Positions 33,260-60,315 are shown, counted from the first letter of the stretch. The stretch: 64,000 bases of DNA from an uncultured delta proteobacterium (GCA_963811605.1 CAWESA010000011.1:159698-223697), one strand, 5' to 3'. Program-made: numbers and translations. The notes: generated by a model from the sequence alone, not told the origin.

Positions 33260-36159
33260 ATGCCACCGGAGGTCTCGACGTCCCCCCACGTGATCGCCTT
33301 TCCGCCCTTTCGAGCTGGACCTGCGGGCGGGGCTGCTTCGTCGAGGCGCCAGCCCGGTGCCCCTGCGGCCGAAGACCTTCGCCGTCCTGCAGTATCTCGC
33401 GGCGCACCCGGGCGACCTGATCTCGAAGCAGGCCTTGCTCGATGCGGTCTGGGGCGACGTGGCGGTCTCGGAGGACGTCGTCCGCCTGTCGATCGGCGAG
33501 CTGCGGGTGGCACTCGGCGACGACCGCGCCGCGGCCCGCTTCATCGAGACCGTTCCCCGGCGCGGATATCGCTTCACCGCCATCACGGAGACGGCGGGCC
33601 CCCCGCTGGACGGCCCGCCGGCGGCGACCGGCGTGGTGGTCGGCCGCGTGCGCGAGCGGGCCGCACTCGCCGACGCGTTCCGGCTGGCTGCCGCTGGCCG
33701 CCGGCAGCTGATGTTCGTCTCCGGGGAGGCGGGGATCGGGAAGACGACCCTCGTCGACACCGCGGTCGGCGAGCTCCTCCGCGCCTCGGGACCCCGGCCG
33801 CGCGTCGGGCGCGGCCACTGCGTCGAGCAGTACGGCGGGGGCGAGCCGTACCTGCCGATCCTCGAAGCGATCGCCGGCCTCAGTCGCGGTGCGGACGGTC
33901 CGGCGGTCCAGGAATCGCTGGAGCGGCACGCACCCGACTGGTTGCTGCGCGTGCTCGGGCTGCTTCCACCCGGCAGGTCCGCGGCGGCGGCCGGCACGCA
34001 GGAGCACACGCTGCACCGGCTCGCAGCCAGTCTCGACGCCCTCGCCACGGAGACGCCGCTCGTGCTGGTTCTCGAGGACGTGCAGTGGAGCGACTACGCG
34101 ACCCTCGACCTCCTCTCGGTCCTCGTCCAGCGCCGCGAGCCGGCGCGGCTGCAGCTCATCTGCACCCTGCGCCCGGCGGACGCGATCGTGCGCGCGCACC
34201 CGGTCTCACGCATGAAACGCGAGTTGCGGCGGAAGGACCTGTGCCGGGAGATCCTGCTCGGCGGCCTGTCGCCATCGGATGTCGCGAGCTACCTCGCGGC
34301 GCGCTTCGCGCAGCCCGACTTTCCCGACGCGCTGCTGCGCCTGTTCGTCGAACGCAGCGAGGGGAATCCGTTCTTCATGGTGGCGCTCGTCGACCACCTG
34401 CTCGCGGACGGGCTGCTCGTGCAGCGCGACGGACGATGGGAGGTCCAGGGCGACCTCGAGGCGCTCCGCACGGCGATCCCCGAGGGATCGCGTGCAGTCA
34501 TCGAGCCGCAGCTCGAGCGCCTCGGGGACGAGGAGCGTCACCTGCTCGAGGCGGCGAGCGTGGTGGGACTGGAGTTTCCGGCTCACGCCCTCGCCGCGGT
34601 CGCCGGCGACGGCGACCCGGCCGACGTCGAGCGCGTGGAGGCGGTGTGCGAGGCGCTCGTGCGCCGCCAGGAGATCCTGCGCGCGGCGGGCGAGAGCGCG
34701 TGGCCCGACGGCACGGCCGGCGCACGCTACGCCTTCCGGCACGCGCTGTACCGGCAGGTCGTCTACCAGCGGCTGTCGTCCTCGACCCGACGGCGCCTCC
34801 ACCAGGGCATCGGGGAGCGCATGGAGGCAGCATTCGGAGAGCGCATCTCGGAGATCGCGAGCGAGCTGGCGGCGCACTTCGAGCGCAGCGGCGACGTCGA
34901 GCGCGCGGTCCGCCACCACTGCGAGGCAGCGGCCCGCGCGGGGGCGCGGTTCGCCTACCAGGAGACCCGCCTCCACCTCGAGGCGGCGCTCGGTCTCATC
35001 CACGAGCAGCCGGAGACGCTACCCCGCCTGCGCCAGCAGCTCCCGCTGCTCGAGACCCTCGGCACGACCTTGTTCGCCACCCGGGGCTACGGCGACGAGG
35101 GTGCAGCGCAGGCGTTTGCACGCGTCCAGGAGATCGCCGAGCGGCTCGACGGCGCCGAGGCGCGGTTGCAGGCGATGGGGGGTCAGCTGATCGTGCACAC
35201 GATGCGTGCGGAGCTCACGACCGCGCGTGCCCTCGGCGAGGCGATGGTCGTCCTGGCCGAGCAGCTCGGGAAGCCGGCAGAGCTCGCCAGCGCCCACACC
35301 ATGCTGGCTGCGGCGCTGTTCGGCCTCGGCGAGGTCGAGGCGGCGCGACTCCACGCCGAGCGGGGACGGGCGCTGTTCGATCCCGGGGCTCCGCCGCTGC
35401 CGACGAACACCGGCGTGCAGAGCTCCATTCTCGTGGCGTCGGCATGCGGCTATCTCGGCCTCGTCGAGCAGGCATGGGCCATGAACCGCGACGCCCTGGC
35501 GCGTGCCGCGACGCTGGGCACCCCGTTTCATCGTGCCCTCGCGACCAACCTCGCGGCGCAGGTCTGCATGCTCCTCGACGACGCGAGCGGCGCGCACCCG
35601 CTGGCCGAGGAAGCCGAGCAGCTCGCCGCCGCCTACGACCTGGCCGTGTTCCGGCTCACCGCGACCATGGTGCGCGCCTGGTGCGAGGTCGCGCAGGGAC
35701 GCGTTCGGGACGGCCTCCCCCTCCTGCAAGACGCCTTCGACGAATACGGCACGACCGGGCAGCGCTTCGGCACCACCAGCTTCAGCATGATCCTGGCTCG
35801 GTCGCACCTGGCCGGCGACGACCCTGCACGCGCGGCTGCCGTCGCCGACGCCGCCCTGTCCTTCGCCGCCGAGACCGGTGAGCGTGTCTACGAGCCCGAG
35901 CTCCTTCGCTTGAAGGGCGAGTGCCTCCTCGCCAGCCTCCTCGTCCCGCGGCCGCAAGGACGCGACGACATGCTTCGAGCGGGCACTGGCGATCGCCGCC
36001 GACCGCAAGGCCCTGCTCTTCGAGCTCCGGGCCGCACTCAGCCTCCTGCGGCTCGGCGGGCACTCGGTGCGCGCGCGCGTCGTCCGCCTGGTGGACCGGT
36101 TCGCTACCGGGGCCGATTGCCTGGACCTGCGCGCAGCGCGGGCCCTGCTCTTCCGCTAG
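33260..36159 (+). CDS. STAND-type regulator: OmpR/PhoB-type winged-helix DNA-binding domain + P-loop NTPase + TPR (two apparent frameshifts)
   Basis: Winged helix: F(R)PFELDLRAGLLRRGASPVPLRPKTFAVLQYLAAHPGDLISKQALLDAVWGDVAVSEDVVRLSIGELRVALGDD...PRRGYRF. Walker A: VSGEAGIGKTTLVD. Walker B: LVLVLEDVQWSD. Long TPR-like tail. A TGA at 33291 precedes the domain, and the protein-like N-terminus MPPEVSTSPHVIAFPPF is in a different frame (shift near 33300-33315). The true C-terminus (...CFERALAIAADRKALLFELRAALSLLRLGG...LDLRAARALLFR*) is in another frame (shift near 35925-35950). The stop is at 36157-36159. Confidence 0.7.
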
Positions 36160-36333
36160 GCCGGCGCGCCGCGGTGGCGCGTCGAGACGTCGCATGCTCG
36201 CAGTCTCCAAGCGAGCACTGCCGGCTGCGAAGCGCGGCTATTCACTGAGGATTGACACGTTCGGGGACCGTCCACCGTCTCTTCCGGTATCTCGTTCCTC
36301 CGTACACATCGGCACGCCAAGGCATCACGCAGC

Positions 36334-44440: not shown

Positions 44441-47400
44441 TCAGACGGAGAGCTCCCGCAGCAGCGCTCTCGCCTCTCGGAGATCGCGGGTGTCGCAAGC
44501 CGCCGGGAACCAGCCGCAGACGTCGCCGAGGTGCCGCCGGGCCTCGTCGGAACGCCGAGAAGCCTCGAGCCAGCGGGCATAGCTGGTGGCCGCCCGCAGC
44601 TCGAGCGAGCGAGCCGTCTGGTGGCGCGCCAGCTCGAGCGCGTCGCGGAAAGCCGCCTCGACCCGTCCCGGATCCGCTCCGCGCCGGACGAGCAGCTCGG
44701 CACGCAGACGATGCAGCTCGGGTTCGAACAGGCGCTCGTCGGTCGCCATGGCGAGGGCCTCCTCCACCGTGGCGGTCGCCTCCTCGATCGCGCCCGCGTC
44801 GGCGTACGCCTGCGCCAGCCAGGAGAGATAGAGACGGTGCGAAACCCGCTGGCCAGTGGCACGGAAGATGGCGAGCCCCTTGCGGAGCTCGTCGAGGGCC
44901 TCCTCGCACCGGCCGTCCTCGGAGAGGGCGGCTCCGCGCACGATCGTCGCCAGGCCAACGAAGAGCGGGAACTGATGCTCGCTGGAGAGCGCGATCAGCG
45001 GGTCGACGTGCTCGAGCGACCGGCGAGGCTCCCGCAGGAAGACGTGGAGTGCGGCCGTGAAGAAACCGGCCCAGGCGACCGCGAGCGGGTTGCGCAGGTG
45101 TTCCGCCAGCTCCAGCGACGCGCGGCTGTGCTCGCGTGCCTCGTCGACGAGCCCGAGCGTCCACGAGTTGACCGTCGCGTAGCTGAGCGCCATGATCCCG
45201 GGATCGGACGGGCTCGCGGGTCGCTCGACCTCCCGGTAGAGGACGACGACCTGGGCGAGGTGTTCTCGTGCCGCCGCCGCGTCGCCGAGCGAGTAATGAT
45301 TGATCCCGTGGGCCAGGTGTCCCCAGACCATCTCGCTGCGCCTCCCGGCCTGATCCGCCGCCACCAGAAGCTCGTCCGCCAGGTCGCGGGCGACGCGCAG
45401 CTCCCCCTGTCCGGCGATCGAGGTCCAGAGACCGAACAGCACCGAGAGGAGCTCGGGCGTGCCGCCGACTCGCCGGGCGAGCTCTCGTGCGCGGGCAAAG
45501 GCGTCGGTCACCTCGCGTGCCCCGTAGCCCTTGGTCGCCGCCAGCGCCTGGCCGAGAAGAATCTGCAGGTTCAGAGCCTGCTGGGGTCGAGCCGGTGCGT
45601 CCGGGAGCATGGCGAGCACCCGCAGCGCCGTCGCGAAGTGACCGGCGGCTTCGCGCAGGGCCGAGCGTGCGACGGCGAGCTCCCCCGCGCGTTGCCACGC
45701 TCGCCAGGCGGTCTCGAGCTCGCTCGCTTCCGTGTAGTGGTGCGCGAGCAGCTCCGGCATCGCCTCCGCGGTCTCCGGGAAGCGCTCGGTCAGGGCGCGG
45801 GCGATGGCTAGGTGCAGCTCACGGCGGCGCCTCTTGAGGAGCGAGCCGTACGCCGCATCGCGGATGAGCGCGTGCTTGAAGACGTAGGTCGCCTCCGGCG
45901 GAAAGCCTCGCGCGTAGAGCAGCTCGGCGGTGGCAAGGCGCGCGAGCGCAGCGTCGAGGTCCGGCATCGGCGATCCGGCGACCGCCTCCAGCAGGCCGTA
46001 CGAGAAGTCGCGCCCGATCGCCGCTCCGATCTGCGCGATCCGTCGCGCCGAGCCGAGGCGGTCCAGGCGCGCTGCCAGCAGATCCTGGAGCGTCGCCGGG
46101 ATCTGGCCCTGCGCCACGCGCCCGATCTCGTCGGTCATGAGGCGCGTCAGCTCTTCCGCGAAGAGCGGTACGCCGTCGCTGCGCGCGACCAGCATCTCCA
46201 CCAGCTCCGGCAGCGCGCTCGTCATCATCTGGCGCACCTGCTGCTGGCTGAGCCGGTCGAGGGTGGCCACCGTGAAGTTCGACCGCGGCGGCCACGTGCA
46301 CCGGAACTCGGGGCGGGCCGTGCACAGCATCAGCACCGGCGCCGTCGCCGCCTGCTGTCCGATGAGCTCGAGAAGCTCGATCGTCGAGGGATCGGCCCAC
46401 ATCAGATCCTCGACGACCAGCACCACCGGTTGGATGGCAGCCGCCCCCAGGAGCCACCTGACCAGCGTCGTCATCAACCGCTGCCGCTGCTGCCCCGGGG
46501 AGCCGACGAGCGTCGGCGAGCGGTCGGGCGGCAACGTGAGGCCGATCAGCTCCGCCACGCACGGCGCTGCCTCGTCCGGATCCAGCCCGGCCGTCGCGAG
46601 CGCGCGGTCGAGCAGCAGGAGCCGCTGATCCGTCGCTTCACCGCACTGCTTGGCGAGTGCCTGCTGGAGCATCTCGATCACACAGAAGAAGGGCGTGTTC
46701 GGGTGATAGGAGGACGCAGCGCACTCGATCCAGGTGTGGTCACGGTCGGCGATGTCACCCCGGAAGACCTCCAGCAGCCGTGACTTGCCGATCCCGGGCT
46801 CGCCACTGATCAGGAACACTTGACCCTCGCCCCCCTGCACGCGCTCCCATCGGCTGAGCAGGAGCGCACGCTCCGCCTCGCGACCGACGAAGGGCGTCAG
46901 CCCGTGCGCGCCGGCGGCCTGCAACCGGCCCCGCGCTCCGCTCGGCTGCAGCACGCGGTAGAGCGCCACGGGCTCCGGGATGCCCCGCAGGACATGGGCG
47001 CCACGCTCCTCCACCAGGAAGAGCCCGGCGACGAGGCGGCGCGTGCTCTCGGTGATCAGGACTTCGTTCGACCCGGCGATCTGCTGGACCCGTGCAGCCA
47101 GGTGAACCGCTTCGCCGAACACATCGGTCTCGTTCCCGCCCCCCTCGCCGATCACCACCTCGCCGGTGTGGACCCCGACCCGGACCGCGAGCTGGACCCC
47201 GTACTGCTTCTCGAGACGCTCGTTGAGCGCCGCCAGCGCGTCGAGGATCGCGATCCCCGCCCGCACGCCGCGTTCCGGGCTGTCATCGTGAACCGTCGGG
47301 TAGCCGAAGTAGGTGAGGAAACCATCTCCCAGAAACCTGGCGATGAAGCCCCCGAAGCGCTCGACGGCCTCCGTGCCGCACCGCTGATACTGTGCGTTGA

Positions 47401-47694
47401 TCGCCTGCCAGTCCTCCGGATCGAGCCGCGCCACCAGCTCCGTCGACCCCACGATGTCGCAGAACAGCACGGTCAGCTGCCGGCGTTCTCCGCCCAGGCG
47501 ATCCGCGGCGGACGCCTCCCCGGGCTCGATCGCTGCCGTGCCGGCGGCGAGCCGCCCGCCGCAGGCGCTGCAGAACTGCGCCTCCGAGCCGTTCGCATGG
47601 CTGCACGTCAGGCAGATCCGCTCCAACCCGACGCCGCAGCCGCTGCAGAAGCGAGCTCCGGCCAGGTTGTCGAAGCTACATGCGGCGCAGCGCA
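44441..47694 (-). CDS. double zinc-ribbon + class III adenylyl/guanylyl cyclase + AAA ATPase + TPR signalling protein
   Basis: GTG start at about 47694 (VRCAACSFDNLAGARFCSGCG...CLTCSHANGSEAQFCSACG). Cyclase homology domain (RRQLTVLFCDIVGSTEL...FLGDGFLTYFGYP...VGVHTGEVVIGE). Walker A FLISGEPGIGKSRLLE. Walker B VVLVVEDLMWAD. Long TPR region. Normal C-terminus ...LLRELSV*. Confidence 0.85.
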
Positions 47695-47807
47695 CGCGGC
47701 GCCCTCCTCCGCGCCCCGCCGGACGTGGGCGGCCCGGACCGCGGGGCCGACGTCGCCACCGGCAGTCTTTGCGAAGCCCGATCGACGCCGGTAAGTGCAC
47801 GAGGCCG

Positions 47808-48665
47808 ATGACGCTCGACGACGCGCGCACACTGGCTTGTCCGGCATGCCGCGGGCCGCTCGAGTTCGAGGGCACGCTCGCCGACGACGAGCTCTCGAGT
47901 GGCGCGCTCTGCTGCACGCGCTGCGTGCGTCGCTGGCCGGTGCGCGACGGTCTGCCGCGTCTGGTCGACGAGGCCCGGGTTCCGCGCGCCGACCGCTTCA
48001 TGCGGGCGCTGTACGACTGGCTCGCCCCGCTGCACGACCCGATCACGCGCGCGCTCTTTCCACCGCTCCAGGGCACGTCGGAGCGCGCCGCGCGCGACGG
48101 ATACATGCCGCGCCTCGCCCTCGGCGATCTCCGCCCTCCCGATGGCGGCGAGCCCCTGCGCGTCCTGGAGGTCGGGGTCGGCGCCGGCGCGAACCTGCCG
48201 CTCCTCGAGCGCGATCTGCCCCGGGACCTCGACGTCGAGCTGTGGGGTCTCGACCTGAGCGATGGGATGCTCGGCCGCTGCCGCCGTCGCCTCGCCCACC
48301 ACCCGGGTCGCCCGATGCGCCTGCTGGTTGCCGACGCGCACGTCCTCCCGTTCCCGGACGCCTCCTTCGACCGCGTCTTCCACGTCGGCGGCATCGGCGG
48401 GTACGGCGACCCGCGCCGGGGCCTGGCGGAGATGGCGCGGGTCGCACGGCCCGACACGCCCATCGTCGTCGTCGACGAGCAGCTCGACCCCGCGCATCGC
48501 GATTCGTCGTTCCACCGCGTGGCGTTCCGTGTGCTCACCTTCTACAGTGCCGCATCGATCAGCCCCGTCGCCCAGCTGCCCCCCGGCGCCACCGCCGTGG
48601 TGTCGGAGCAGGTGAGCCGCTACTATTACTGTCTCACCTTTCGCATGCCGCGGCCCGCGGCGTGA
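47808..48665 (+). CDS. Trm112-like zinc-ribbon + class I SAM-dependent methyltransferase
   Basis: N-terminus MTLDDARTLACPACRGPLEFEG...LCCTRCVRRWPVRDGLPRLV (Trm112 fold). Methyltransferase motif I VLEVGVGAGANL. FHVGGIGGYGD. Confidence 0.8.
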   Translation: MTLDDARTLACPACRGPLEFEGTLADDELSSGALCCTRCVRRWPVRDGLPRLVDEARVPRADRFMRALYDWLAPLHDPITRALFPPLQGTSERAARDGYMPRLALGDLRPPDGGEPLRVLEVGVGAGANLPLLERDLPRDLDVELWGLDLSDGMLGRCRRRLAHHPGRPMRLLVADAHVLPFPDASFDRVFHVGGIGGYGDPRRGLAEMARVARPDTPIVVVDEQLDPAHRDSSFHRVAFRVLTFYSAASISPVAQLPPGATAVVSEQVSRYYYCLTFRMPRPAA

Positions 48666-48679
48666 GAGCCGGCGGTCGT

Positions 48680-49156
48680 TCACGGCGGGCTCGGCGGCGG
48701 CCTGAAGGCTGCCATCAGGTCGGAGACGACCTGGCTGACGGTACAGGATGGCGGGGAAACCGCCGCGCAGGCGAGCACCCCGAGCGTCCTCATCTCGGCG
48801 GCGAGACCGTCGCTGATGCGATCCACCCCCGTGTAGATGCCGCCGAGGAAGATGACGTCGGCGATCTCCTGCGGCGAGAGACCCTCCATCAATCCGCAAT
48901 AGACGTGCAGCGCGAGGTTGAGACCCGCGTCCCGTGAAGCGAGGATCGCGATGAGACAACGCTCGCGGTCCTTCGCCGACATGCTCTCGGCGCTCCCGTC
49001 GTAGAAGGCCTTCCGGATCGCGGCGATGAAGTCGGCCGTCCTGTCGTCGAGGCCCGGTATGCCGCTGCTCAGGAGCCCGACCATGTCCTCCTCGAAGTAC
49101 GCGCGCCGCAGCGTGTCGAGCTGTGCGCTCGAGAGCACGCTATCGATCTTGCCCAT
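48680..49156 (-). CDS. carboxymuconolactone decarboxylase (CMD/AhpD-like) family protein
   Basis: Starts MGKIDSVLSS. The helical CMD-like core is ...CLIAILASRDAGLNLALHVYCGLMEGLSPQEIADVIFLGGIYTGVDR. Confidence 0.55.
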   Translation of the reverse strand: MGKIDSVLSSAQLDTLRRAYFEEDMVGLLSSGIPGLDDRTADFIAAIRKAFYDGSAESMSAKDRERCLIAILASRDAGLNLALHVYCGLMEGLSPQEIADVIFLGGIYTGVDRISDGLAAEMRTLGVLACAAVSPPSCTVSQVVSDLMAAFRPPPSPP

Positions 49157-49182
49157 CCGGATGACCTCCTTCGCCCCCGACC

Positions 49183-50010
49183 TCACTCGGGTCGCAGGAT
49201 GATGTCGAGGAGCCGCAGCGTCATGCCCCCCGTGTAGTCGATGGTCGCTCCGTTGAACCACCCGCCCTCGTCACGCGCAAGGAACCCGACGATGCGGCCG
49301 ACGTCCTCGAACGTGCACGAGCGACCGGCCGGGATCATCTCGCGGACCGACGCCTCGAGCCGCGCGACGCCGGCGGGGCCGAGCATGCGCGCCAGGGCCG
49401 GCGTGACGACGGAGCCGAACTTGAGCAGGTTGACGCGATGGCCGTACGGTCCGAGCTCGAGCGCGAGGTGCCGCACGTACATCTGGAGGGCGGCCTTCGC
49501 CGCCGCGATCAGACCACAGTTGTGGAGCAGGGAGTCGTGCAGGAGGTTGGTCAGCCCGAGGAGCCGGGCCCCCGGCGCGAGGAGGTCGAGCGCGTGGAGC
49601 GCCCGTGCCCAGTACACGAAGGAATGCGCGAGGTAGTTGAACGTCTTCTCGAACTGCCGGGGATGGAGCTCCGCGCCCTCGGTGGCGAGAAAGTGTCCGA
49701 GCGACGCGCCACTCAGCGCGTGCACCATGAGCGCGACGCTGCGAGGCCCGGCCACCTCGCGGAGGCGCGTCGCGCCGGCGAGCGCACCGTCCGCATCGCC
49801 CGCATCGCCGATGTGCATGGCGACCCGGCGGCCGGTGGCACGCACCTCGTCCTCGAGGGCCCTGGCCTCGTCGGCGAAATGACCCCGGTGGATGCCGTAG
49901 ACGTGCAACCCGGGATCACGCGCCACGGCCCGGGCGATGGCCGCGCCGGTGCCGGTCGACGCCCCGAGGATGAGCGCCCACCGTGCGCCGCCGTCCTCAG
50001 GCTGCGTCAT
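49183..50010 (-). CDS. short-chain dehydrogenase/reductase (SDR; enoyl-reductase-like, atypical)
   Basis: ALILGASTGTGAAIARAV (Gly-rich NAD(P)-binding motif). 275 aa. Start MTQPEDGG mapped to 50010. Confidence 0.75.
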   Translation of the reverse strand: MTQPEDGGARWALILGASTGTGAAIARAVARDPGLHVYGIHRGHFADEARALEDEVRATGRRVAMHIGDAGDADGALAGATRLREVAGPRSVALMVHALSGASLGHFLATEGAELHPRQFEKTFNYLAHSFVYWARALHALDLLAPGARLLGLTNLLHDSLLHNCGLIAAAKAALQMYVRHLALELGPYGHRVNLLKFGSVVTPALARMLGPAGVARLEASVREMIPAGRSCTFEDVGRIVGFLARDEGGWFNGATIDYTGGMTLRLLDIILRPE

Positions 50011-50782
50011 GCCGTCGCGTGTCCTCCGTCGCCCCGGGACCCCCTCCACGCGCACGGTCGAGCAGCTCCTGCACGGCGCCCTGGACGACGCCGTGGAGGC
50101 GCAGCAGGCCCGGGCGGTCGTCGAGAGCGATGTCCCCGTCGCGACGGGGATCGATGGGCTCGCCGACGAGCTGCCGCATGCGGACGGGAAAGGGCGGCGA
50201 GAGCGGGTAGGGTCCGAGCGGACCGAGACCGAGCCACGGAAGCCAACTCCAGTCGCGCGGCAGCCCGAGCCGCCGCCCGAGCCGATCGGCGTCGTTGAGC
50301 CCGATGTACGCCCCGTCGGCGCCCGCCGCCGCCACCGGGACGATGGGCAGCCGGTGGCGCAGCGCGAGGCGGAGATAGCCGACGCGGCCTCCCCAGTCGA
50401 CGCGATAGCGGCTCCGGAGGCCGCGGCATCCCTCGCGCGCACCGCCGGGGGTCACCATGATGTGCTCGCCACGCGCCACGGCCCGGGCAACGTCGTCGTC
50501 GTCGCCGGTCAGGAAGCCGAGGCCGTCGACCAGCCATCGCAGCACCGGAAGCTGCTTCATCCCCCGATGCACGAAGCCGTGCGGCAGGTAGCCCAGCCGC
50601 TCGTAGAGGGCCACGGTGAGCATGCACATGTCGTACGCGAACGGACGCCCGTGGTAGCCGACGATCAGCGCCGCGCATGCACCGTCGAGGTGCGCGAGCC
50701 CTTCCACGGTGTAGCGGTGATAGCGCCGGAGCACTCGCCAGTACGCCAGCCAGAGACGCAGCGGGACCCGGCTCGCCGCCAT
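49997..50782 (-). CDS. lysophospholipid acyltransferase (PlsC/LPLAT family)
   Basis: Acyltransferase motifs VGYHGRPFAYDM (motif I-like) and HIMVTPGGAREG (motif III-like). The start overlaps the upstream gene's stop (ATGA at 50780-50784). The 3' end overlaps the SDR start by 14 nt. Confidence 0.7.
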   Translation of the reverse strand: MAASRVPLRLWLAYWRVLRRYHRYTVEGLAHLDGACAALIVGYHGRPFAYDMCMLTVALYERLGYLPHGFVHRGMKQLPVLRWLVDGLGFLTGDDDDVARAVARGEHIMVTPGGAREGCRGLRSRYRVDWGGRVGYLRLALRHRLPIVPVAAAGADGAYIGLNDADRLGRRLGLPRDWSWLPWLGLGPLGPYPLSPPFPVRMRQLVGEPIDPRRDGDIALDDRPGLLRLHGVVQGAVQELLDRARGGGPGATEDTRRHDAA

Positions 50783-51774
50783 CACGCCGCCCGGAGGAGC
50801 GTCGCCCCCGAGGAGAGGCCCGCACCCACGCCGACCATGAGGATGCGATCGCCGGCACGGACGCGCCCGGAGGACATCAGCCGGTCGAGGCTGATCGGGA
50901 TCGAGGCCGCACCCACGCTGCCGGTCTCGTGGACCACGGGGACGACCCGCTCCGCGGCGACGCCGAGCGTGCGCACGAACGCGTCCAGCATGACGCCGTT
51001 CGGCTGATGCGGCAGGACCCACTCGACGTCGGCGAGGCGCAGTCCCGCCTGCGCGAGCACCGTGTCGGTGCTGTCCCGCACGAGCTCGAGCGCGAGGTCG
51101 AGCATGCGCGCATTCGGCTTCGTGAAGCGAATCGTCTCGCGTGTCGCGGTGTGCCCTGGATGAGCGAGCGTCACCCCGCCGGCGTTTCCCGGCTCGTTCC
51201 GCAGGACGGAGCCGAGGATGCCCTCGCCGTCCCGACCTTCCGTCACGATGACGGCCGCGGCCCCGTCTCCGAAGACGAAGAACGGCCGCGGATCGTCGGG
51301 CGTGATGAATCGCGATCCGAGCTCCGCAACGACGATCGCGACGGCTTGCTGTCCCGTGGCCACCCCGCGCGCCGCGACGTCGAGGGCCGAGAGGAAGCCC
51401 AGGCAGGCGTTGTTCAGGTCGAAGCAGTCGCAGCCATGCGTGATCCCGAGCGCACCCATGACGTCGTTGGCCGTCGCGGGAATCAGCCGGTCGCCGCCGA
51501 GCGAGTCGACGAAGATGATGCGCGTCAACGCGTCGGCCGGCAGGCGGGCGGCGTCGAGCGCGATCCGCAGCGCGGCGGCGCCGAGCCCGGCTGCGGTGGT
51601 GCCGGGCGCGACGAAGTGCCGCACCGCGATGCCGGTGCGAGTCTCGATGCGCGCCGCGTCCCACGTTCCCGGCACCTGCGCGACCAGCTCTGCGGTCGTG
51701 ACGGACCGCTCGGGCATGACGCTGCCGGTTCCGGCGATGCGCACGCAGAGTCCCGTCTTTCTGCGGTCGGTCAC
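50782..51774 (-). CDS. 3-oxoacyl-ACP synthase III (FabH-like KAS III)
   Basis: 330 aa. MPERSVTTAELVAQ... Active-site Cys region DLNNACLGFLSAL. HQPNGVMLD and VHETGSVGAASIPISL (His/Asn triad region). Confidence 0.85.
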   Translation of the reverse strand: MTDRRKTGLCVRIAGTGSVMPERSVTTAELVAQVPGTWDAARIETRTGIAVRHFVAPGTTAAGLGAAALRIALDAARLPADALTRIIFVDSLGGDRLIPATANDVMGALGITHGCDCFDLNNACLGFLSALDVAARGVATGQQAVAIVVAELGSRFITPDDPRPFFVFGDGAAAVIVTEGRDGEGILGSVLRNEPGNAGGVTLAHPGHTATRETIRFTKPNARMLDLALELVRDSTDTVLAQAGLRLADVEWVLPHQPNGVMLDAFVRTLGVAAERVVPVVHETGSVGAASIPISLDRLMSSGRVRAGDRILMVGVGAGLSSGATLLRAA

Positions 51775-51892
51775 AGCGCGCTTGCTCTACCGCCCGGTAG
51801 ACAGCGGGGTCAACCTCCTGGACGAGCACCGTCTTGCCTTCCCCCCGTCGCACACGCTGGCGTATAAGCATCGCGCGACGAGCCCGACGCCG

Positions 51893-54715
51893 ATGAATCC
51901 GCTGCCGATCGATCCGTGGGATTTCGAGCTGCCCGAGTACCTTCGTCGGGTCGGCGTTGCCCCGAGCGATCTCCATCCGCACTACGCCACCCTCGACCCG
52001 CTGCGCGACTTCGGCGATCGATACTACCAGGACGATCGGCACATCACGGGGGCGGCGCTGCCGCTCCATCCGCTCCTCGGCACCGAGACGCAGCGGGCGG
52101 TCTACGCCGTCCTGTCGGGCATGCACGACTGGCCCTCGGGCACGCGGTTCACCGAGCTGGACACGAGCACGGACCCGGCGATCCACCTCCTCATCCGGGG
52201 TCGCGCCCGGCTCGTCGCCACGCTGTGCGCGACCGGGACGGTGCGCCGGTGGGTGGTCGCGCAGTACCGGACCGGGCAATGGATCGGCCTGCCCCGCCTG
52301 CTCCGCGAGTACGATCGCACCGCGCGCCCGTGCGCGGAGTGGCCCGACGGACGCGTCCGTCTCGAGGTGGAGGCGCTGGGTCCCGTGCGCACCCAGTGCC
52401 TGCGCCTCGACGATGCCCTCTCGCTCGTGCGCACCTCGTCGGACTTCCGTCGTTTCGTCGAGCACCACGTGGCGGTGCGCTTCGCCCGGCGGCGTGAGGT
52501 GCTCCGGCGTCTGGACGCGAATCCGCTCTTGCGCCTCTTGAACCCGGCCGACCGCGAGTATCTGCTCCAGCTCGGCGCCATCGTCGCGGTCGGGAACGAC
52601 GTCTCCGCGCCCTATCTTGCCTCCGGACCCCCCGCGCGCCGGGCCGCGCTCCTGCTCCGGGGAGAAGGCGGGCTGCTCGTGTCCGGCACGGGAGACGTGC
52701 GCCGCTACGGCGCCGCGCTCCGCCCCGGAGACCTCGTCGGTCACGAGGGTCTGGTGATGGACGCCGAGCTTCAGAGCCCGCCTGCGGACCGCTTCGACAT
52801 CGTCGAGCCGCCTCGCACGACCGAGGTACGGCTCGCGCCCGGGACACAGCTGCTGCAGTTCTACTGGTACGCGCTGCGCTGGGTGCTGGACGATCGAGCC
52901 TCGGTGTGGGAGCGGGTGAAGCGCATCATGTCGGGCGATCCCGCCGACATCACCGCGCCGATGCCGACCATCGTCAGCTTCCACGCTGGCCGCGCGGGAC
53001 TCGGCACCACCCTCCTGGCGTACGGCACCGGCGCCGAGCTCGCGCGCGCGGGGAGCCGGTCCGTCTCCGTGATCGACCTGCAGGGCCCGGAGAACTTCAC
53101 GGCGCGCTGGAAGGATCGCGGCTTCGCGGTGAAGGATGCCGCCATCCCCCTCCAGGTCGGCCCGCGCATGCTGCGCGCGGAAGGACGTCGCACCACGCTC
53201 GACTGCCATGTCCTGGTGCCGCCGTCGGACGCCGCGTGGCCAACGGGACTGGAGATCGCGTGGCCGGTGGCCACCGACCCGGACGCCGTCGAGGACCTCG
53301 TGGACGCCCTCGAGATGCGGGAGGACGTCAGCCACGTCGTCGTGGCGGGAAGCGGCGCCGAACCGCACGGCCTCATGAGCCAGGTGCTCGACCGGCTCCA
53401 TGGTCGCTGCAGCGCGGTGTTCTGGGTGTCCGACGACGGGGCCGCCGCCTACCCGCGGGCCGAGCCGGAGCACCTCACGTGGGTCTACCGCATGACGCCC
53501 GCGTACCGGGCCTCCGAGGCGCGCCAGGCGAGACGCGTCTGGTTCGACTGGCTCTTCGCCGGGGTGATCGACGCCACCTCGACCCCCGTGCACGATGCGA
53601 TCGAGAGCCTGCTCGGCTACAGCCCCGGCTCGGAGCTGGAGCGCGAGTCGGTCGAGGGGCCCCGGCGAACGGTCCGGGTCCCGGACGATCCGATCGGCGC
53701 CCGGATGTTCGATCAGGGTGGACTCGGGACGCTCGTGGGCCCGGATGCGCAGCGCCTCCCGCTGGGACGCGCCGTGGGGCGGCTGGCCCGCGTCGTCGAC
53801 CGACGGACGGTGGGCCTGGCGCTGGGCGGCGGAGGCGCATGGGGATTCTCCCACGTTGCCCTCCTCCGCAACCTGGAAGCGCAGGGCGTTCCGATCGACT
53901 ATATCGCGGGCACCTCGTTCGGTGCGGTGGTGGGCGGCCTCTACGCGGCCGGCGGCATGCCGGCCCTGGAGCGCCTCGTGGACGAGAACTCGGCGACGAG
54001 CCCGGGGATCGGCTCGTCGCTCCGCGCGATCGTCACGGGCAGCCTGAACCGGGCCCTGTTCATCGCTCCGCTCTCGTCGGCGGCGGTGGAGACCTTCGTG
54101 CACGGTGAGCTGCGCGCCGTCGGCGCCGGCGATCCGCCCTGCCTGGGCACGACGGAGATTCCCTTCTATCCCGTCGGCACCAACCTCGGCACGCATGAGC
54201 CCCTCGCCCTGCCGCACGCGACGGTGGGCTGGGGCGTGCGCATGTCGGGGAGTCTCCCGCCGATCTTCCCGACACTCCTGCGAGGCGACGACCGCGTCGC
54301 CGACGGCGCCTTCATCGCCAACGTGCCGTCGCGCGTTGTGCGCGAGATGGGAGCGCACTTCGTGATCGCGGCCAACGTCGTGCCGCCGCCGCCCACGTCC
54401 ACGCCGCCCAGCTTCGACCCGAGGAGCCTCGCGACCTGGCTGCCGCGCAGGCTCGTCGAGCGGCTCGAGGACTCGGTACGCGGCCTCTTCGTGCTCGCGT
54501 GGAAGGCGGGCCAGGACCAGGGCGCGCTGGCGGCCGACTACCGCCTCGATCTCCGTCCGACGGTGGCAAACCTGTTCGAGATGTGGCGCGGGCGCGACAT
54601 CGTGGAGGAGATCGAGGCCAAGCACTTCACGGGCGCGAACGAGCCGCGGATTCGCCACGCCTGGGACCGCTTCCGCGGAAACGGCGCGCGGCGAGCCCGC
54701 TGGACGGTCGACTGA
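51893..54715 (+). CDS. NTE-like phospholipase: cyclic-nucleotide-binding-like domains + patatin domain
   Basis: 941 aa. cNMP-binding-like segments (GAALRPGDLVGHEGLVMD and others). Patatin motifs LALGGGGAWGFSHVALLRNLEAQGVPIDYIAGTSFGAVVGGLYAAG (GGGxxG...GxSxG) and the catalytic Asp region DGAFIANVP. Confidence 0.8.
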   Translation: MNPLPIDPWDFELPEYLRRVGVAPSDLHPHYATLDPLRDFGDRYYQDDRHITGAALPLHPLLGTETQRAVYAVLSGMHDWPSGTRFTELDTSTDPAIHLLIRGRARLVATLCATGTVRRWVVAQYRTGQWIGLPRLLREYDRTARPCAEWPDGRVRLEVEALGPVRTQCLRLDDALSLVRTSSDFRRFVEHHVAVRFARRREVLRRLDANPLLRLLNPADREYLLQLGAIVAVGNDVSAPYLASGPPARRAALLLRGEGGLLVSGTGDVRRYGAALRPGDLVGHEGLVMDAELQSPPADRFDIVEPPRTTEVRLAPGTQLLQFYWYALRWVLDDRASVWERVKRIMSGDPADITAPMPTIVSFHAGRAGLGTTLLAYGTGAELARAGSRSVSVIDLQGPENFTARWKDRGFAVKDAAIPLQVGPRMLRAEGRRTTLDCHVLVPPSDAAWPTGLEIAWPVATDPDAVEDLVDALEMREDVSHVVVAGSGAEPHGLMSQVLDRLHGRCSAVFWVSDDGAAAYPRAEPEHLTWVYRMTPAYRASEARQARRVWFDWLFAGVIDATSTPVHDAIESLLGYSPGSELERESVEGPRRTVRVPDDPIGARMFDQGGLGTLVGPDAQRLPLGRAVGRLARVVDRRTVGLALGGGGAWGFSHVALLRNLEAQGVPIDYIAGTSFGAVVGGLYAAGGMPALERLVDENSATSPGIGSSLRAIVTGSLNRALFIAPLSSAAVETFVHGELRAVGAGDPPCLGTTEIPFYPVGTNLGTHEPLALPHATVGWGVRMSGSLPPIFPTLLRGDDRVADGAFIANVPSRVVREMGAHFVIAANVVPPPPTSTPPSFDPRSLATWLPRRLVERLEDSVRGLFVLAWKAGQDQGALAADYRLDLRPTVANLFEMWRGRDIVEEIEAKHFTGANEPRIRHAWDRFRGNGARRARWTVD

Positions 54716-56794: not shown

Positions 56795-57003
56795 CGTGTG
56801 CGCCGAACAGACTCCCGGGGGGCGGTGCGACGCAAGAGACAGGCCCCGGGGCGGTGACGCGGCGAGTCGGATGGCACCCCCGACGAAAGACAGCTCGACG
56901 GCACTTTTGGTTTCACGCCGCGTCGGCCCCGTGGTAGCCCCTCTCGTGCCGTCCGGATCTGCAGCTCCGCGCGGACACGAAGAGCGGCGGCTCGGGAGCG
57001 CTG

Positions 57004-60000
57004 ATGTCGAACAGCTGGAAGACGGTGATCGGCCTCTTGATCCTCTGTTCCGCGCCGCCGGCCGCGCGCGGCGCCGGGCCGCTCTGCCCCGCGGGCGAGA
57101 GCACCCTCGGCCCCGGAACGCTGCACGCCATCCGTCGTGGCGCCGGCGCGGGCAAGGTGACGAGCACGCACGCGACCTTCGTCCTCCCGACCGGCATCGC
57201 GATCGTTCCGGACGGCCAACCGCTCGTGTTCGCGATCGAGGCCGACCGTCACCCGATCGGGAAGGTCACGCTGGACGCCGGCGCCCTCGTCTCCTACCGG
57301 GGCGGGAAGCACTTCGCGTACCGCAACGGCGCGTCGAGACTGTCTCTCGGCCATGCGCGTGGCGGCTACCGGCTGGCGGCGACCTTCGACGACTTCGATC
57401 TGACGGCCCTCGATCTCGTCCACCCGCCGCGGTTCATGAAGCAGATCCTGAAGATCGGCGACGCCTGCTTCTCCTCCGTGCTGGCATGCACCGGCAAGCC
57501 GAAGGGGGTCGTGTGCAAGCCCGAGCGCACCGTGTTGCTGGCCGGGCGCGTCGAGCGATCGGGGCACGTGCCGCTGTCCGGGACGATGGTGACCCTGATC
57601 GACGACCAGCGCCTCGAAACCGTCTCGGTCTTCGCCAAGGAGGACGGGCGCTACGTGTTTCCGCGCCAGCGTCCCGGGACCTACAGGCTGCGGGCGCGGC
57701 TCATCGGCTACGAGGACGCGGTGCAGCCCGACGTGGTGGTGGCGAAGAACCGTGCGACGCGCGTCGCGTTCACGATGGTGCCGACCGCGAACACGAACGA
57801 CCAGCTCCCCGCGAGCGCCTGGTTCTCGCTCATCCTCGACAAGTGGCCGGATCCCAAGATCCGCGGAGACTTCACGCTCTCGTGCGGCAACTGCCATCAG
57901 ATCGCCAGCTACCGCTTCCGGCGCGCCAAGACCGAGGAGCAGTGGCGCAGCGTCCTGACGCGCATGATGACGAACCTGCCGCCATACTTCCAGGAGACGC
58001 GCGAGCTCCTGGTCAAGAACGTGATCGATACCTACGGACCGAACGCCACCTATCCTACCCTGCCGATCCCGCCGCCGCCGTCGGGCGACGTCCTGAACGC
58101 CGTCATCTACGAGTACATCCTCGGCACTCAGACCAGCAGCCCCGGCTGCCACGACCTCGAGCTCGGGGCCGACGACCGCGTGTACGCGGACGCCGGCTTG
58201 CGCTGGATCGATCCGCGCACGAGCGAGCGCGGCGTGTACCCGTTCGTCGGCGGCTCGCACTCCATCGAGCGGGGCCCGGACGGCAACATGTGGATCACGC
58301 AGGCGGGCAGTGACAGCCTCGCCGAGGTCTATGTCGACGGATCCGCTCCGCGCTACTTCTCGCTGCCGAGGATCGGAGACGACCAGGGTGCATATCCCCA
58401 CACGCTGCGCTTCAACTCCCAGCATCAGATATGGATGACCATGACGAAGTCGAACCACATCGCGCTGTTCGACCCGCCGACGGCGGCGTGGACCTACCAC
58501 CGCTTGCCGGAGGCGGACCCTGCCGAGGTGGGCCTATCCATCCCGGTCGCGTATGGCTGCGACACCGCACCCGACGACACCGTCTGGTGGTCGCAGCTCT
58601 TCGGCGACCGCATCGGACACTATGACCCTGCCACCGACACCCTGAAGGCCTGGCGGCCTCCCTTCTACGGGCCGCGGCGACTCGCCGCGGATCAGGACGG
58701 CATCGCCTGGGTTCCCGGCTACGGCTCCGGCGTGCTCGGCCGCTTCGACCCGACGACCGAGCGCTGGAAAGTCTACCCCATGCCCACCGGGATTCCCGGC
58801 CCGCCGGGCTTCGGAACCTCGGAGACGCCCTACAACCTGAACGCCAACCGGCAGACCGGCCAGGTGTGGATCAACGGCTCCAATTCCGACACCCTGATTC
58901 GCTACGACCCGCAGAGCGCGCGCTTCACGGCCTTTCCGCTCCCGACTCGCGCCAGCTTCACCCGCGAGATCGAGTTCGACGCGGACAACAACGTCTGGAC
59001 CTGTACCTCCAACGAGCCGCCGGGGCCGGACGAGCGCGGGCAAGGCAAATTCGTGAAGCTCGAGCTGCCGCCGCCGGGCGCCGAATGCGGCAACGGCCGG
59101 CTCGAGCTGGGCGAGGAATGCGACGACGGCAACGCGACCGACTGCGACGGGTGCAGCACGGACTGCCGCGCCGAGACCGGATGCGGCGACGGCGTGCGCT
59201 GCGGCGGCGAGCAGTGCGACGACGGCAACACCGACGACTGCGACGGGTGCTCGGCGACGTGTCATGGCGAGACCGGTCTTCTCTGCGGCGACGGGATCGT
59301 CAACACGGACTGCGGCGAGGAGTGCGAGCCGCCCGGGGCAGCGGGATGCAGCCTCCAGTGCGCGTACGTGGTCGGCTGCGGCAACGGCATCGTCGAGGCC
59401 GGCGAGGCGTGTGACGACGGGAACACCGACGAGTGCGACGGGTGCACGTCGAAGTGCACCGTCACCGCGGGCTGCGGCGACGGCGTCCGCTGCGGGTCCG
59501 AGGAGTGCGATGACGGCAACACGACGAGCTGCGACGGCTGCTCGAGCATGTGCGTCAAGGAGGAAGGGGCCATCTGCGGCGATGGCGTCGTGAACTCGAC
59601 CTGCGGCGAGGAGTGCGATCCGCCCCAGCCGGGAACGTGCGCATACAACTGCCGCACGGGCGCCGCGACGCCGCTCGGAACTCGCCACTTCTCGTTCGGC
59701 GGGGCTCTCTACTCCTCCGCACTGGGCACCGGTGTGCCGCTCGGGCTCCCCGCGGGTGCCCTCGACCTCGCGGCCGATGCTCCGGATGCCGCCGGGAGCG
59801 CGACCGTCAGCGTCGCCGGTCCGGTGTACTTCAGCATCCCGATCCTCGACGGCGCGTTCGGCTACTTCTGCGGCCGGATCTCGTCGTGCACCGGTCACGT
59901 CTACTGCAACGGCGGGCCGCCCGCCGACGTGCTCGTCGAGCAGGACAGCGCCGGGCCTGGCCGCCAGGGAAACCCCGTCATCACCACCACGGGTCTCGGC

Positions 60001-60315
60001 TCCGACAGCGGGCCGGGCACCGTCGTCCTCACGTGCGATCAGTCGACGATCCAGGTGAGTCCGCCGGCACCCGACTGCACGACGCAGGCCTATCCTGCCG
60101 ATCAGCCGTTGGTGTACACGAGCGGGTCGGTGACCGGCGACTACCTCAACGGCGACCCACGCATCGGCAACGGGCAGATCACGGTCGCGGGCGAGCCCTT
60201 CGTCTGTGCGCAGTGGACGATCGAAGACGGCCCGGGAATCCTCGCGGGCTCGTTCCTCCAGGAGGCGGATCCGCAGGCCGGGGACACGGCGAACGGCCTG
60301 CGGCTCGACGACTGA
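57004..60315 (+). CDS. large secreted multidomain protein: carboxypeptidase-regulatory-like domain + single CxxCH haem-binding motif + Vgb-lyase-like beta-propeller + six Myxococcus-type Cys-rich repeats + C-terminal domain
   Basis: Signal peptide MSNSWKTVIGLLILCSAPPAARG. CarbopepD_reg-like LLAGRVERSGHVPLSGTMVTLIDDQRLETVSVFAKEDGRYVF. LSCGNCHQIASY. Propeller repeats (GPDGNMWITQAGSDSLAEV; IWMTMTKSNHIALFDP; TVWWSQLFGDRIGHYDP; GIAWVPGYGSGVLGRFDP; QVWINGSNSDTLIRYDP; NNVWTCTS). Repeats CGNGRLELGEECDDGNATDCDGCSTDC (x6). Confidence 0.8.
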   Translation: MSNSWKTVIGLLILCSAPPAARGAGPLCPAGESTLGPGTLHAIRRGAGAGKVTSTHATFVLPTGIAIVPDGQPLVFAIEADRHPIGKVTLDAGALVSYRGGKHFAYRNGASRLSLGHARGGYRLAATFDDFDLTALDLVHPPRFMKQILKIGDACFSSVLACTGKPKGVVCKPERTVLLAGRVERSGHVPLSGTMVTLIDDQRLETVSVFAKEDGRYVFPRQRPGTYRLRARLIGYEDAVQPDVVVAKNRATRVAFTMVPTANTNDQLPASAWFSLILDKWPDPKIRGDFTLSCGNCHQIASYRFRRAKTEEQWRSVLTRMMTNLPPYFQETRELLVKNVIDTYGPNATYPTLPIPPPPSGDVLNAVIYEYILGTQTSSPGCHDLELGADDRVYADAGLRWIDPRTSERGVYPFVGGSHSIERGPDGNMWITQAGSDSLAEVYVDGSAPRYFSLPRIGDDQGAYPHTLRFNSQHQIWMTMTKSNHIALFDPPTAAWTYHRLPEADPAEVGLSIPVAYGCDTAPDDTVWWSQLFGDRIGHYDPATDTLKAWRPPFYGPRRLAADQDGIAWVPGYGSGVLGRFDPTTERWKVYPMPTGIPGPPGFGTSETPYNLNANRQTGQVWINGSNSDTLIRYDPQSARFTAFPLPTRASFTREIEFDADNNVWTCTSNEPPGPDERGQGKFVKLELPPPGAECGNGRLELGEECDDGNATDCDGCSTDCRAETGCGDGVRCGGEQCDDGNTDDCDGCSATCHGETGLLCGDGIVNTDCGEECEPPGAAGCSLQCAYVVGCGNGIVEAGEACDDGNTDECDGCTSKCTVTAGCGDGVRCGSEECDDGNTTSCDGCSSMCVKEEGAICGDGVVNSTCGEECDPPQPGTCAYNCRTGAATPLGTRHFSFGGALYSSALGTGVPLGLPAGALDLAADAPDAAGSATVSVAGPVYFSIPILDGAFGYFCGRISSCTGHVYCNGGPPADVLVEQDSAGPGRQGNPVITTTGLGSDSGPGTVVLTCDQSTIQVSPPAPDCTTQAYPADQPLVYTSGSVTGDYLNGDPRIGNGQITVAGEPFVCAQWTIEDGPGILAGSFLQEADPQAGDTANGLRLDD
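59080..59640 (+). repeat. six in-frame tandem ~90-100 nt coding repeats (CGDG...CDDGN...CDGCS..C)
   Basis: Recurring tgcggcgacggc....gagtgcgacgacggcaac.....tgcgacgggtgc units seen directly in the sequence. Confidence 0.7.

Follow-up and report, generated by a model that had tools for sequence, protein, structure and literature searches.

Here we report on a block of seven genes at positions 44441-54715 of a 64,000-nucleotide stretch of DNA from an uncultured delta proteobacterium (GCA_963811605.1 CAWESA010000011.1:159698-223697; this whole stretch is referred to as the window). One end of the block is formed by the gene for a STAND-type nucleotidyl cyclase and the other by the gene for a 940-residue patatin protein with cyclic-nucleotide-binding (CNB)-like domains. 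Five enzyme genes lie in between, encoding a methyltransferase, a CMD/AhpD-like protein, a short-chain dehydrogenase/reductase (SDR), an acyltransferase and a protein resembling 3-ketoacyl-acyl-carrier-protein synthase III (KAS III) (Table 1). STAND cyclases and CNB-patatin proteins are known kinds of protein, whereas the conserved module combining them is previously undescribed. We are highly confident that the seven genes form one functional module. On balance, and with considerable reserve, their architectures, retained residues and conserved linkage lead us to favor a signaling chain in which the cyclase would produce a cyclic nucleoside monophosphate (cNMP) that would be read by the CNB-patatin protein.

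Because the window has a G+C content of ~71%, raw lists of open reading frames (ORFs) are mostly noise, and the seven genes were resolved from a codon-position GC plot together with translations. The methyltransferase gene, which is divergent from the cyclase gene, was absent from the gene list of a preliminary description of this DNA, which had proposed a local cyclic-nucleotide circuit made up of the cyclase, an 'NTE-like' lipase and a lipid-metabolism operon. Orthologous loci were sampled from the patatin side, using the contigs of six homologues and a scan of species-representative genomes. The same seven genes were found in the same order and orientation in every locus with enough flanking sequence, amounting to about ten (L001/2, L003, L004, L005/6, L008, L010, L011 and two P0013 contigs), with protein identities of 55-89% between blocks. 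The co-occurrence of cyclase and patatin genes that the preliminary description had wanted to see across genomes is thus borne out. Upstream of the cyclase gene the flanks vary by locus (YceI and a methyltransferase, a HEAT-repeat protein, a P-type ATPase, DHOR or an SDR), and so they do downstream of the patatin gene (a tocopherol-cyclase-like protein, Lon, DUF3237, a radical-SAM protein or DPBB). In the window, too, the neighbors look unrelated to the block, with an FAD monooxygenase and an M11 peptidase upstream and a Metal_hydrol protein and an SGL-like protein downstream. Since the flanks differ in each locus and the seven genes are constant, the cyclase and patatin genes mark the exact limits of the block.

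Sampling from the cyclase side gave a concordant picture: the orthologues P0050 and P0031 lie inside the block, and the 49%-identical paralogue P0058 lies outside it in an unrelated context. The cyclase orthologues comprise 26 clusters at 66-100% identity, after which identity drops sharply to 52% or less, and the orthogroup of the patatin protein is of similar size (~22 clusters). The metagenome-assembled genome (MAG) MFD00822.bin.1.250 contains two complete copies of the block, L010 (CAWFFN010000012.1) and L011 (CAWFFN010000002.1). Frameshifts break up several genes in these copies (in L010 those for the cyclase, the methyltransferase and the acyltransferase, in L011 that for the patatin protein), a finding that could reflect long-read indels, pseudogenes or a mixed bin.

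These data bear on the explanation that the proximity has no specific meaning, i.e., that one of many STAND cyclases happens to stand beside a lipid operon and is kept there only through the relatedness of the sampled genomes. The cyclase has more than 6000 paralogues at E<=1e-30, which are 43-52% identical and stem in many cases from Binatia-type MAGs, and the syntenic loci all belong to one clade in which the patatin protein is 59-84% identical. However, both flanks differ everywhere and the seven genes never separate, the boundaries coincide with the cyclase and patatin genes, the 49% paralogue sits in an unrelated context, the block was duplicated as a unit in one MAG, and the equivalent slot of a sister clade again holds a STAND protein (see below). 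We therefore regard an accidental neighborhood as very improbable.

The STAND cyclase and the CNB-patatin protein

The gene at 44.4-47.7 kb had been read as encoding a cyclase with Zn-ribbons, an ATPase and tetratricopeptide repeats (TPR), and the Pfam matches confirmed this assignment (Table 1), although TPR_12 reached only 28.8 bits at residues 920-985, just below its gathering score (GA) of 30.1. The CxxC pairs of the zinc ribbon are kept in an alignment of the cyclase orthologues. With a P-loop NTPase carrying Walker A and Walker B motifs, followed by helical repeats, the protein has the build of a STAND protein. The NCBIfam model TIGR03903 aligns residues 51-1037 to model positions 262-1262 with 480.4 bits, below the cut-off of 705.75, and no Pkinase match was found by Pfam in the window protein. 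Pfam likewise detected no helix-turn-helix (HTH) family at E<=0.01, including a LuxR-type HTH at the C terminus, which argues that the output of this STAND protein is not direct DNA binding.

For the catalytic domain, 56 solved class III cyclase sequences were matched, with Rv1900c/LipJ (1ybt, E 1.4e-21) in first place and CyaB and Cya2 next. Catalytic residues were assigned from PDB alignments to 1ybt, 3r5g and 2w01 and from six orthologues of related loci. The metal-binding Asp80 and Asp124 and the transition-state Arg202 are invariant in seven out of seven module cyclases. The transition-state Asn, in turn, is replaced by His198 in all orthologues and likewise in the aligned sequence of Rv1900c, which is an active adenylyl cyclase. 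The preliminary description had made a point of checking the metal-binding and the substrate-specifying residues; the metal-binding aspartates are retained, as is the Arg, whereas a canonical substrate-specifying pair is lacking, as is the Asn. The window cyclase is no obvious pseudo-cyclase and may be active.

For the protein at 51.9-54.7 kb, a fusion of CNB domains to a patatin lipase had been proposed. The patatin part is confirmed by a clear profile match (Table 1), and the CNB part is supported by relatives and by fold. In a search of 5.8 billion proteins, the family comprised 22 clusters at 59-100% identity and one at 37%. The CNB profile PF00027 was matched by 18 of 23 family members at E<=1, and five out of eight individually scanned members exceeded its gathering score of 27.5 bits, with two stretches each at residues ~75-145 and 237-312. 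An AlphaFold2 model computed on the family alignment reached a pTM of 0.81, with pLDDT values of 80-95 for most of the N-terminal 640 residues. Its best PDB matches in Foldseek were the tandem CNB domains of PKA-RII-beta, PKG-I-beta, PKA-RI-alpha and trypanosome PKA-R (E 9e-11 to 1e-8, ~290 columns). Alignment of a 40-sequence family profile with the canonical CNB domain of the NTE-family protein P0026 by hhalign gave an E-value of 2.3e-5. In the family profile search against PDB sequences, patatins were matched and CNB structures were not, and hhalign of A1 against P0026 reported the patatin domain alone. The CNB homology of the 940-residue protein holds at the level of family and fold, and not by a profile match of its own. 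A match to Mur_ligase_C in N-terminal fragments (Pfam, E<=10) was judged spurious.

The second CNB-like domain, domain B, contains a conserved but non-canonical cassette of the pattern G-[DE]-L-x-G-H-E ... E-P-x-R-x-T. It shows no variation among the 23 sequences of the close family, and relatives at 27-41% identity retain it for the most part. Within it, Gly283 and Arg308-Thr309/310 are invariant in the close family.

Between the CNB-like and the patatin domains, a separate model of residues 346-636 (pLDDT 85.6) revealed a ParA/MinD-like fold, with ParA 3ea0 as the best Foldseek match (E 3.8e-6, TM ~0.54) and further matches to BcsQ, FleN, FlhG, Soj, MinD and NifH. The Walker A motif of this domain is degenerate (GRAGLGTT) and misses the Lys. 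The NTE_Ploop domain (PF24179) was found in none of the 23 family members at E<=1 and in none of nine remote relatives at E<=0.01, and hhalign of the middle domain against the P-loop region of P0026 returned a probability of 0.1%, which is a weak test given the single-sequence template. Because NTE_Ploop was not found and only 38 relatives of the N-terminal 636 residues were recovered (phmmer at E<=1e-3 against 1.84 billion cluster representatives), the protein, as judged from its sequence, belongs to a small separate lineage with NTE-like architecture and is no demonstrated member of the NTE family. The label 'NTE-like' therefore describes its architecture well but does not extend to family membership.

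The PDB matches of the family profile include the patatin PlpD (5fqu, E 1.8e-24). The nucleophile Ser675 (in GTSFG) and Asp804 (in DGA) are kept in nearly all of 40 aligned relatives, from which lipase competence is predicted. The glycine-rich motif GGGGAWG at 53825-53845 has its Trp in nearly all family members; RssA-type patatins carry an Arg at this position, where a basic residue is usual. Four further proteins considered as NTE-type (P0024, P0025, P0027 and P0028) were rejected, being PlpD-type patatin-POTRA/Omp85 proteins. The 8.5-kb neighborhood of P0026 contains a CMAS-type lipid methyltransferase gene but no cyclase gene. In L015, a canonical bacterial NTE-family protein (480-3706; cNMP_binding twice, NTE_Ploop, Patatin) is directly followed by a CMAS-type (cyclopropane/mycolic-acid synthase-like) lipid methyltransferase, so that a patatin and a lipid methyltransferase are paired outside the window as well.

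Sister-clade modules and the proposed signaling chain

The wider KAS III-like family (53-66% identity) and a sister clade allowed the module to be followed beyond its close orthologues. The sister clade was sampled through the loci L019 and L020 and 70 loci from a scan of metagenomes. Sister loci, defined by a KAS III-like protein 44-65% identical to that of the window, contain the same set of KAS III, acyltransferase, SDR, CMD and methyltransferase genes; identity to the window proteins is 44-72% for four of them and 31-42% for CMD. Their STAND partner is a Pkinase-AAA_16-TPR protein of ~1220 residues (L019, L020, L035, L040, L045, L055, L064 and L074, with partial copies in L036, L042, L044 and L050). 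The sister patatin gene abuts the KAS III gene on the same strand, and no CNB or ParA-like signal was detected in the N terminus of its product (Pfam at E<=0.1; tblastn; hhalign below 2% probability on weak single-sequence templates). Loci with a KAS III-like protein at least 76% identical to that of the window encode the cyclase-STAND and the CNB-patatin protein, and never the kinase, where the relevant flank is available. The STAND regulator and the patatin enzyme are constant, whereas the output domain of the former and the regulatory region of the latter both differ between the clades. One caveat on the constant STAND partner is L067, in which no STAND gene lies within 2 kb of the methyltransferase gene. 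In L019 an ORF of 157 residues ends 4 nt before the patatin ORF, which suggests a split or frameshifted gene.

In the chain that we favor, the TPR region of the STAND protein would sense a ligand, and nucleotide exchange and oligomerization of the AAA_16 domain would, by analogy with STAND proteins, join the N-terminal cyclase domains by induced proximity. Class III cyclase domains are active only as dimers. The cyclase would then make a cyclic nucleotide, with cAMP as the default guess although the specifying position is not conserved, and this messenger would bind domain B of the patatin protein at the GHE...EPxRxT cassette. Binding might free the patatin domain (Ser675/Asp804) from autoinhibition, possibly via the ParA/MinD-like domain as a dimerization switch, and the five enzymes encoded in between (KAS III-like protein, acyltransferase, SDR, CMD protein and methyltransferase) would further process the resulting acyl or lyso-lipid. 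A broader proposal can be put forward only tentatively, and we hold it to be possible rather than probable: the blocks may represent an undescribed class of STAND-governed lipid modules with a wide distribution among uncultured soil bacteria of Binatia or 'deltaproteobacterial' type, in which the regulatory N terminus of the patatin protein fits the output domain of its sensor, be it a cyclase or a Ser/Thr kinase, and in which the cNMP of a non-canonical cyclase, possibly not cAMP, would be read by the GHE...EPxRxT cassette and gate lipolysis post-translationally.

A number of observations weigh against this chain. The preliminary description had staked its CNB assignment on a match of the N-terminal half to the cNMP_binding model, and in the window protein itself PF00027 gave no match at E<=10 for residues 1-170, 160-370 or 1-370. 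Domain A lacks the Glu and Arg of the cassette. In domain B, the position of the canonical ribose-binding Glu is taken by His284, with Glu285 next to it (hhalign places GDLVG-H-E over G-E-T-V-G-E-M), and a 15-residue insertion, ranging from ~7 to 60 residues in relatives, splits the cassette before Pro-Arg-Thr-Thr. The His and the variable insertion imply that the ligand may not be cAMP or cGMP, and perhaps not a nucleotide. On the cyclase side, the substrate-specifying Lys position is Arg120 in the window and Q, Q, H, Q, N and K in the six orthologues, the second specificity position being Asp191 in the window and Asp or Glu among the orthologues. No canonical substrate pair is present, and with the Lys position varying in this way and a His at the Asn position, neither the product of the cyclase nor its activity is predictable from sequence.

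The genomic evidence has its own counterweights. The cyclase/kinase split follows the two clades and may thus reflect a single evolutionary event instead of repeated co-variation. The cyclase-STAND and kinase-STAND proteins are only 26-30% identical, which points to displacement by a paralogous STAND protein and not to a clean domain swap. Small stand-alone class III cyclases occur in L019 and L038 beside a patatin without CNB domains or without any patatin; they lie just upstream of the patatin/KAS III genes (L019 5840-6574, 244 residues; L038 2017-2508). A 38%-identical CNB-patatin protein in a Polyangium MAG (L012) adjoins PntAB and fumarase genes, and none of the partners is encoded within 7 kb upstream of it. 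Finally, the thousands of paralogous cyclases and other CNB proteins in these genomes make cross-talk possible. Taken as a whole, the local circuit of the preliminary description is partly supported: its architecture and linkage hold and gain considerably from the synteny and the paired replacement, whereas it is weakened on canonical cNMP binding and on the membrane-lipid label.

Much of this would also fit a single lipid or secondary-metabolite cluster with the STAND protein as its pathway regulator, in which the CNB-like domains recognize some other small molecule, be it a nucleoside, a lipid-derived ligand or an intermediate, or dock proteins, and the cNMP acts elsewhere, e.g., on a CRP-type factor. 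The missing PF00027 match, the His at the Glu position, the variable insertion of 7-60 residues and the degenerate domain A are all in line with such a scheme, as is the range of fold matches, which includes trypanosome PKA-R (6hyq, 6hyi and 6flo), binding nucleosides and not cAMP, and the chlorophenol-binding CprK. The palindrome conserved in the divergent promoter region (see below) suggests a separate transcription factor. Among eukaryotic proteins, mutation of the CNB sites of SWS abolishes function, yet the role of the CNB site in NTE/SWS was still called unknown in December 2025 (PMC12710771; review PMC9025805). Against it stand the joint presence of the CNB domains and the cyclase in one clade with replacement of both in the sister clade, the invariant Arg-Thr of the cassette, and the lack of a transcription-factor gene in the block. 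Weighing both sides, we consider a different ligand or a docking role unlikely, while giving it real weight.

A third explanation would place the block among anti-phage abortive-infection systems of the Pycsar/CBASS kind, where an Avs-like STAND cyclase makes a cNMP upon infection and the CNB-patatin protein destroys the membrane. A STAND-TPR sensor, a nucleotide messenger and a patatin effector follow known defense logic, for which CapV, a nucleotide-activated patatin without a CNB domain, provides a precedent (PMC12480259; 9iom), and each locus has a different genomic neighborhood. The cyclase domain also matches Pycsar PycC models (6e-17, 60 bits), but this score is no better than that of the generic Pfam cyclase model (63.9 bits), and the match is therefore not specific. 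PADLOC found nothing for the patatin protein and the five enzymes except a generic methyltransferase match. Moreover, five metabolic enzymes lie between sensor and effector in all loci, the sister patatin gene abuts the KAS III-acyltransferase-SDR genes on the same strand as a gene for a pathway enzyme would, the seven proteins diverge in parallel with a host-like GC content, and the flanks consist of housekeeping genes and not of defense islands. A defense function appears very improbable to us.

If the cyclase-to-patatin chain holds, an NTE-type lipase would for the first time be linked to a defined cyclase/receptor pair. CNB-patatin proteins include human NTE/PNPLA6, a neurodegeneration gene, and a bacterial analogue whose gene is tied, in a conserved block, to that of a cyclase of its own and to those of enzymes likely to act on its product would be a compact, clonable system for studying the nucleotide, its binding and the switching of the lipase. 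With a kinase in place of the cyclase, the sister clade provides a natural experiment for studying the coupling of STAND sensors to metabolic enzymes, and the block points to an uncharacterized lipid pathway common in soil metagenomes.

Enzymes, intergenic elements and neighboring genes

The operon divergent from the patatin gene had been described as FabH-like/PlsC/SDR/CMD. Its genes are all present, but the KAS III-like protein has neither the FabH triad nor FabH-level scores, and the PlsC-type match is borderline. In an alignment with E. coli FabH, the Cys and His of KAS III are kept, and Ser286 occupies the position of FabH Asn274 in all orthologues and in the wider family, where Gly285-Ser286 is invariant. 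NCBIfam scores lie below the FabH cut-offs (204.5 versus 249; 194.6 versus 292.1). Because the residues are Cys-His-Ser and not Cys-His-Asn, the protein is probably, by analogy, an acyl-transfer rather than a decarboxylative condensing enzyme.

The acyltransferase has no NCBIfam match, and its orthologues give weak or faint DAGAT matches; in its motif YHGRPFAYD the His-Asp spacing, by eye, exceeds that of HX4D. No catalytic Tyr is obvious at the expected spacing in the SDR (alignment by eye), which is 80-89% identical across the orthologous loci. NCBIfam matches of the methyltransferase (UbiE, PmtA, Mtf2 and others) are all far below their cut-offs. In the sister locus L020, a single protein of 458 residues (12670-14046) comprises both the Trm112-methyltransferase and the CMD protein, and this fusion supports joint work of their window counterparts. 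Genes for an acyl carrier protein (ACP), a dehydratase or a malonyl-transferase were not found in the seven-gene block. Aryl-polyene, OleABCD, dialkylresorcinol and tetronate clusters were rejected as identities for the block, which lacks the ACP, dehydratase, AMP-ligase and partner genes. The membrane-lipid remodeling put forward in the preliminary description goes beyond this evidence, given the Cys-His-Ser residues of the KAS III-like protein and the borderline acyltransferase with weak DAGAT matches in its orthologues, and may be regarded as one possibility among several for the module.

The KAS III and patatin genes share a divergent promoter region that contains the perfect palindrome TCTACCGCCCGGTAGA, a putative operator, 12 nt upstream of the GTG start of the KAS III gene. 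It is flanked by TTGACC (-35-like, minus strand) and a TAGAGC box, and its half-sites, spaced as TCTACC-N4-GGTAGA, are kept in seven of eight aligned orthologous loci. The palindrome is not CRP-like, and a copy with one mismatch lies within the cyclase gene at 45225-45240. The spacer between the divergent cyclase and methyltransferase genes (47696-47807) holds the conserved blocks CTTTGCGAAG and CCGGTATGTG just before the methyltransferase ATG, which may be promoter elements. A scan with promoter and terminator consensus sequences returned no more sites than expected by chance, and an Rfam scan of 43-56 kb detected no RNA family.

Elsewhere in the window, a second STAND-type protein is encoded at 33294-36248 (+), with an OmpR-type Trans_reg_C domain fused to AAA_16 in an AfsR/SARP-like architecture. 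A protein of 1125 residues at 56938-60315 (+) combines CarboxypepD_reg, a Vgb_lyase-type beta-propeller and the Cys-rich repeat DUF4215 and is probably secreted; a DUF4215 protein of 4312 residues is also found near the sister module in L019. Near modules in related genomes, we noted a glutaminase-cNMP_binding fusion (L016 20905-22767) and an alpha/beta-hydrolase with a weak cyclase domain, resembling LipJ/Rv1900c (L017 13828-15210).

Table 1 Coordinates of the seven genes, their domains and motifs, and the intergenic palindrome in the window.
Feature	Position	Strand	Basis
STAND-type nucleotidyl cyclase, 1084 aa (DZR, class III cyclase, AAA_16, TPR/MalT-like C terminus)	44441..47695	-	Pfam, NCBIfam TIGR03903
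C-terminal helical/TPR sensor-like region, aa ~560-1084, boundary approximate	44444..46018	-	TPR_12, TIGR03903
AAA_16 STAND NTPase, aa 268-456	46328..46894	-	PF13191 84.9 bits (GA 32.6)
Walker B LVVEDLMWAD	46391-46420	-	intact motif in AAA_16 domain
Walker A GEPGIGKS	46781-46804	-	intact motif in AAA_16 domain
Class III cyclase catalytic domain, aa 73-246	46958..47479	-	PF00211 Guanylate_cyc 63.9 bits (GA 21.9)
Double zinc ribbon, aa 3-46	47558..47689	-	PF12773 DZR 30.8 bits (GA 27.3)
Trm112-type Zn-ribbon and class I SAM methyltransferase (UbiE/COQ5-like), 285 aa	47808..48665	+	Pfam, synteny
CMD/AhpD-like protein, 158 aa	48680..49156	-	PF02627 29 bits (GA 23), synteny
Divergent SDR (adh_short_C2 / enoyl-ACP-reductase-like), 274 aa	49183..50007	-	PF13561 97.1 bits
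Acyltransferase (LPLAT superfamily), 261 aa	49997..50782	-	PF01553 24.6 bits (GA 23)
KAS III (FabH)-like protein, 330 aa	50782..51774	-	ACP_syn_III 62.2 bits, ACP_syn_III_C 94.3 bits (Pfam)
16-bp perfect palindrome TCTACCGCCCGGTAGA, putative operator	51786..51801	.	exact match; 0.02 expected by chance
CNB-CNB-ParA-like-patatin protein, 940 aa ('NTE-like')	51893..54715	+	Pfam, family searches, models
CNB-like domain A, aa ~60-180, motif GQWIGLP	52070..52432	+	first PF00027 stretch in orthologues, model, Foldseek
CNB-like domain B, aa ~205-335	52505..52897	+	second PF00027 stretch in orthologues, hhalign
Domain B cassette half GDLVGHEGL	52727-52753	+	conserved, non-canonical
Domain B cassette half EPPRTTEV, after insertion	52805-52828	+	conserved, non-canonical
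ParA/MinD-fold domain, aa ~355-600	52955..53692	+	separate model, Foldseek
Patatin domain, aa 642-813	53816..54331	+	PF01734 56.8 bits (GA 27.7)

Comparison with known systems

Proteins of the NTE family (PNPLA6/NTE, Drosophila SWS, yeast Nte1 and the bacterial P0026) share with the window protein the order of CNB fold, P-loop-like alpha/beta domain and patatin domain with a Ser-Asp dyad. They differ in having three CNB domains instead of two, in their cassette, which in the window protein is non-canonical, in an NTE_Ploop domain, which was not detected there, and in an N-terminal membrane anchor, of which none was seen by eye. Among bacterial proteins, the M. tuberculosis proteins Rv2565, Rv3239c and Rv3728 were predicted around 2000 to be CNB-patatin proteins and are, to our knowledge, still poorly characterized. 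Our literature search returned no description of the seven-gene module or of a characterized bacterial cNMP-regulated patatin.

The closest parallels to the cyclase are the mycobacterial STAND cyclases Rv0386, Rv1358 and Rv2488c, with a cyclase-ATPase-TPR-LuxR HTH architecture, which carry an N-terminal class III cyclase on an AAA/TPR STAND protein as in the window. Their C-terminal LuxR HTH is absent from the window protein, which adds an N-terminal double Zn-ribbon instead. In Rv0386, the substrate-specifying residues are Gln and Asn. Rv1900c has Asn/Asp as specificity residues and, in our alignment, a His at the position of the transition-state Asn, and the window cyclase is likewise non-canonical with a His. 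As a fusion of a lipase-type alpha/beta-hydrolase to a cyclase, Rv1900c/LipJ represents another cyclase-lipase pairing, whereas the lipase of the window is a separate protein, of the patatin type, with CNB-like domains. With the 'TOMM system kinase/cyclase fusion protein' of TIGR03903 the window protein shares the cyclase-AAA-TPR part, without the kinase and below the cut-off, while a kinase-STAND version is present in the sister-clade modules. TOMM systems comprise thiazole/oxazole peptide genes, none of which lies near the window block.

Compared with FabH and PlsC, the block encodes a KAS III fold with Cys and His and an acyltransferase of the LPLAT superfamily, but differs by the Ser in place of Asn274 and by the borderline PF01553 match. 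Pycsar and CBASS, finally, follow the same logic as the chain proposed here, in which a cyclase messenger acts on an effector with a nucleotide sensor; the Pycsar sensor is a CNB domain and the CBASS effector may be a patatin phospholipase. In the window, by contrast, the cyclase is fused to a STAND NTPase, and the cyclase-patatin pair is split by five conserved metabolic genes.

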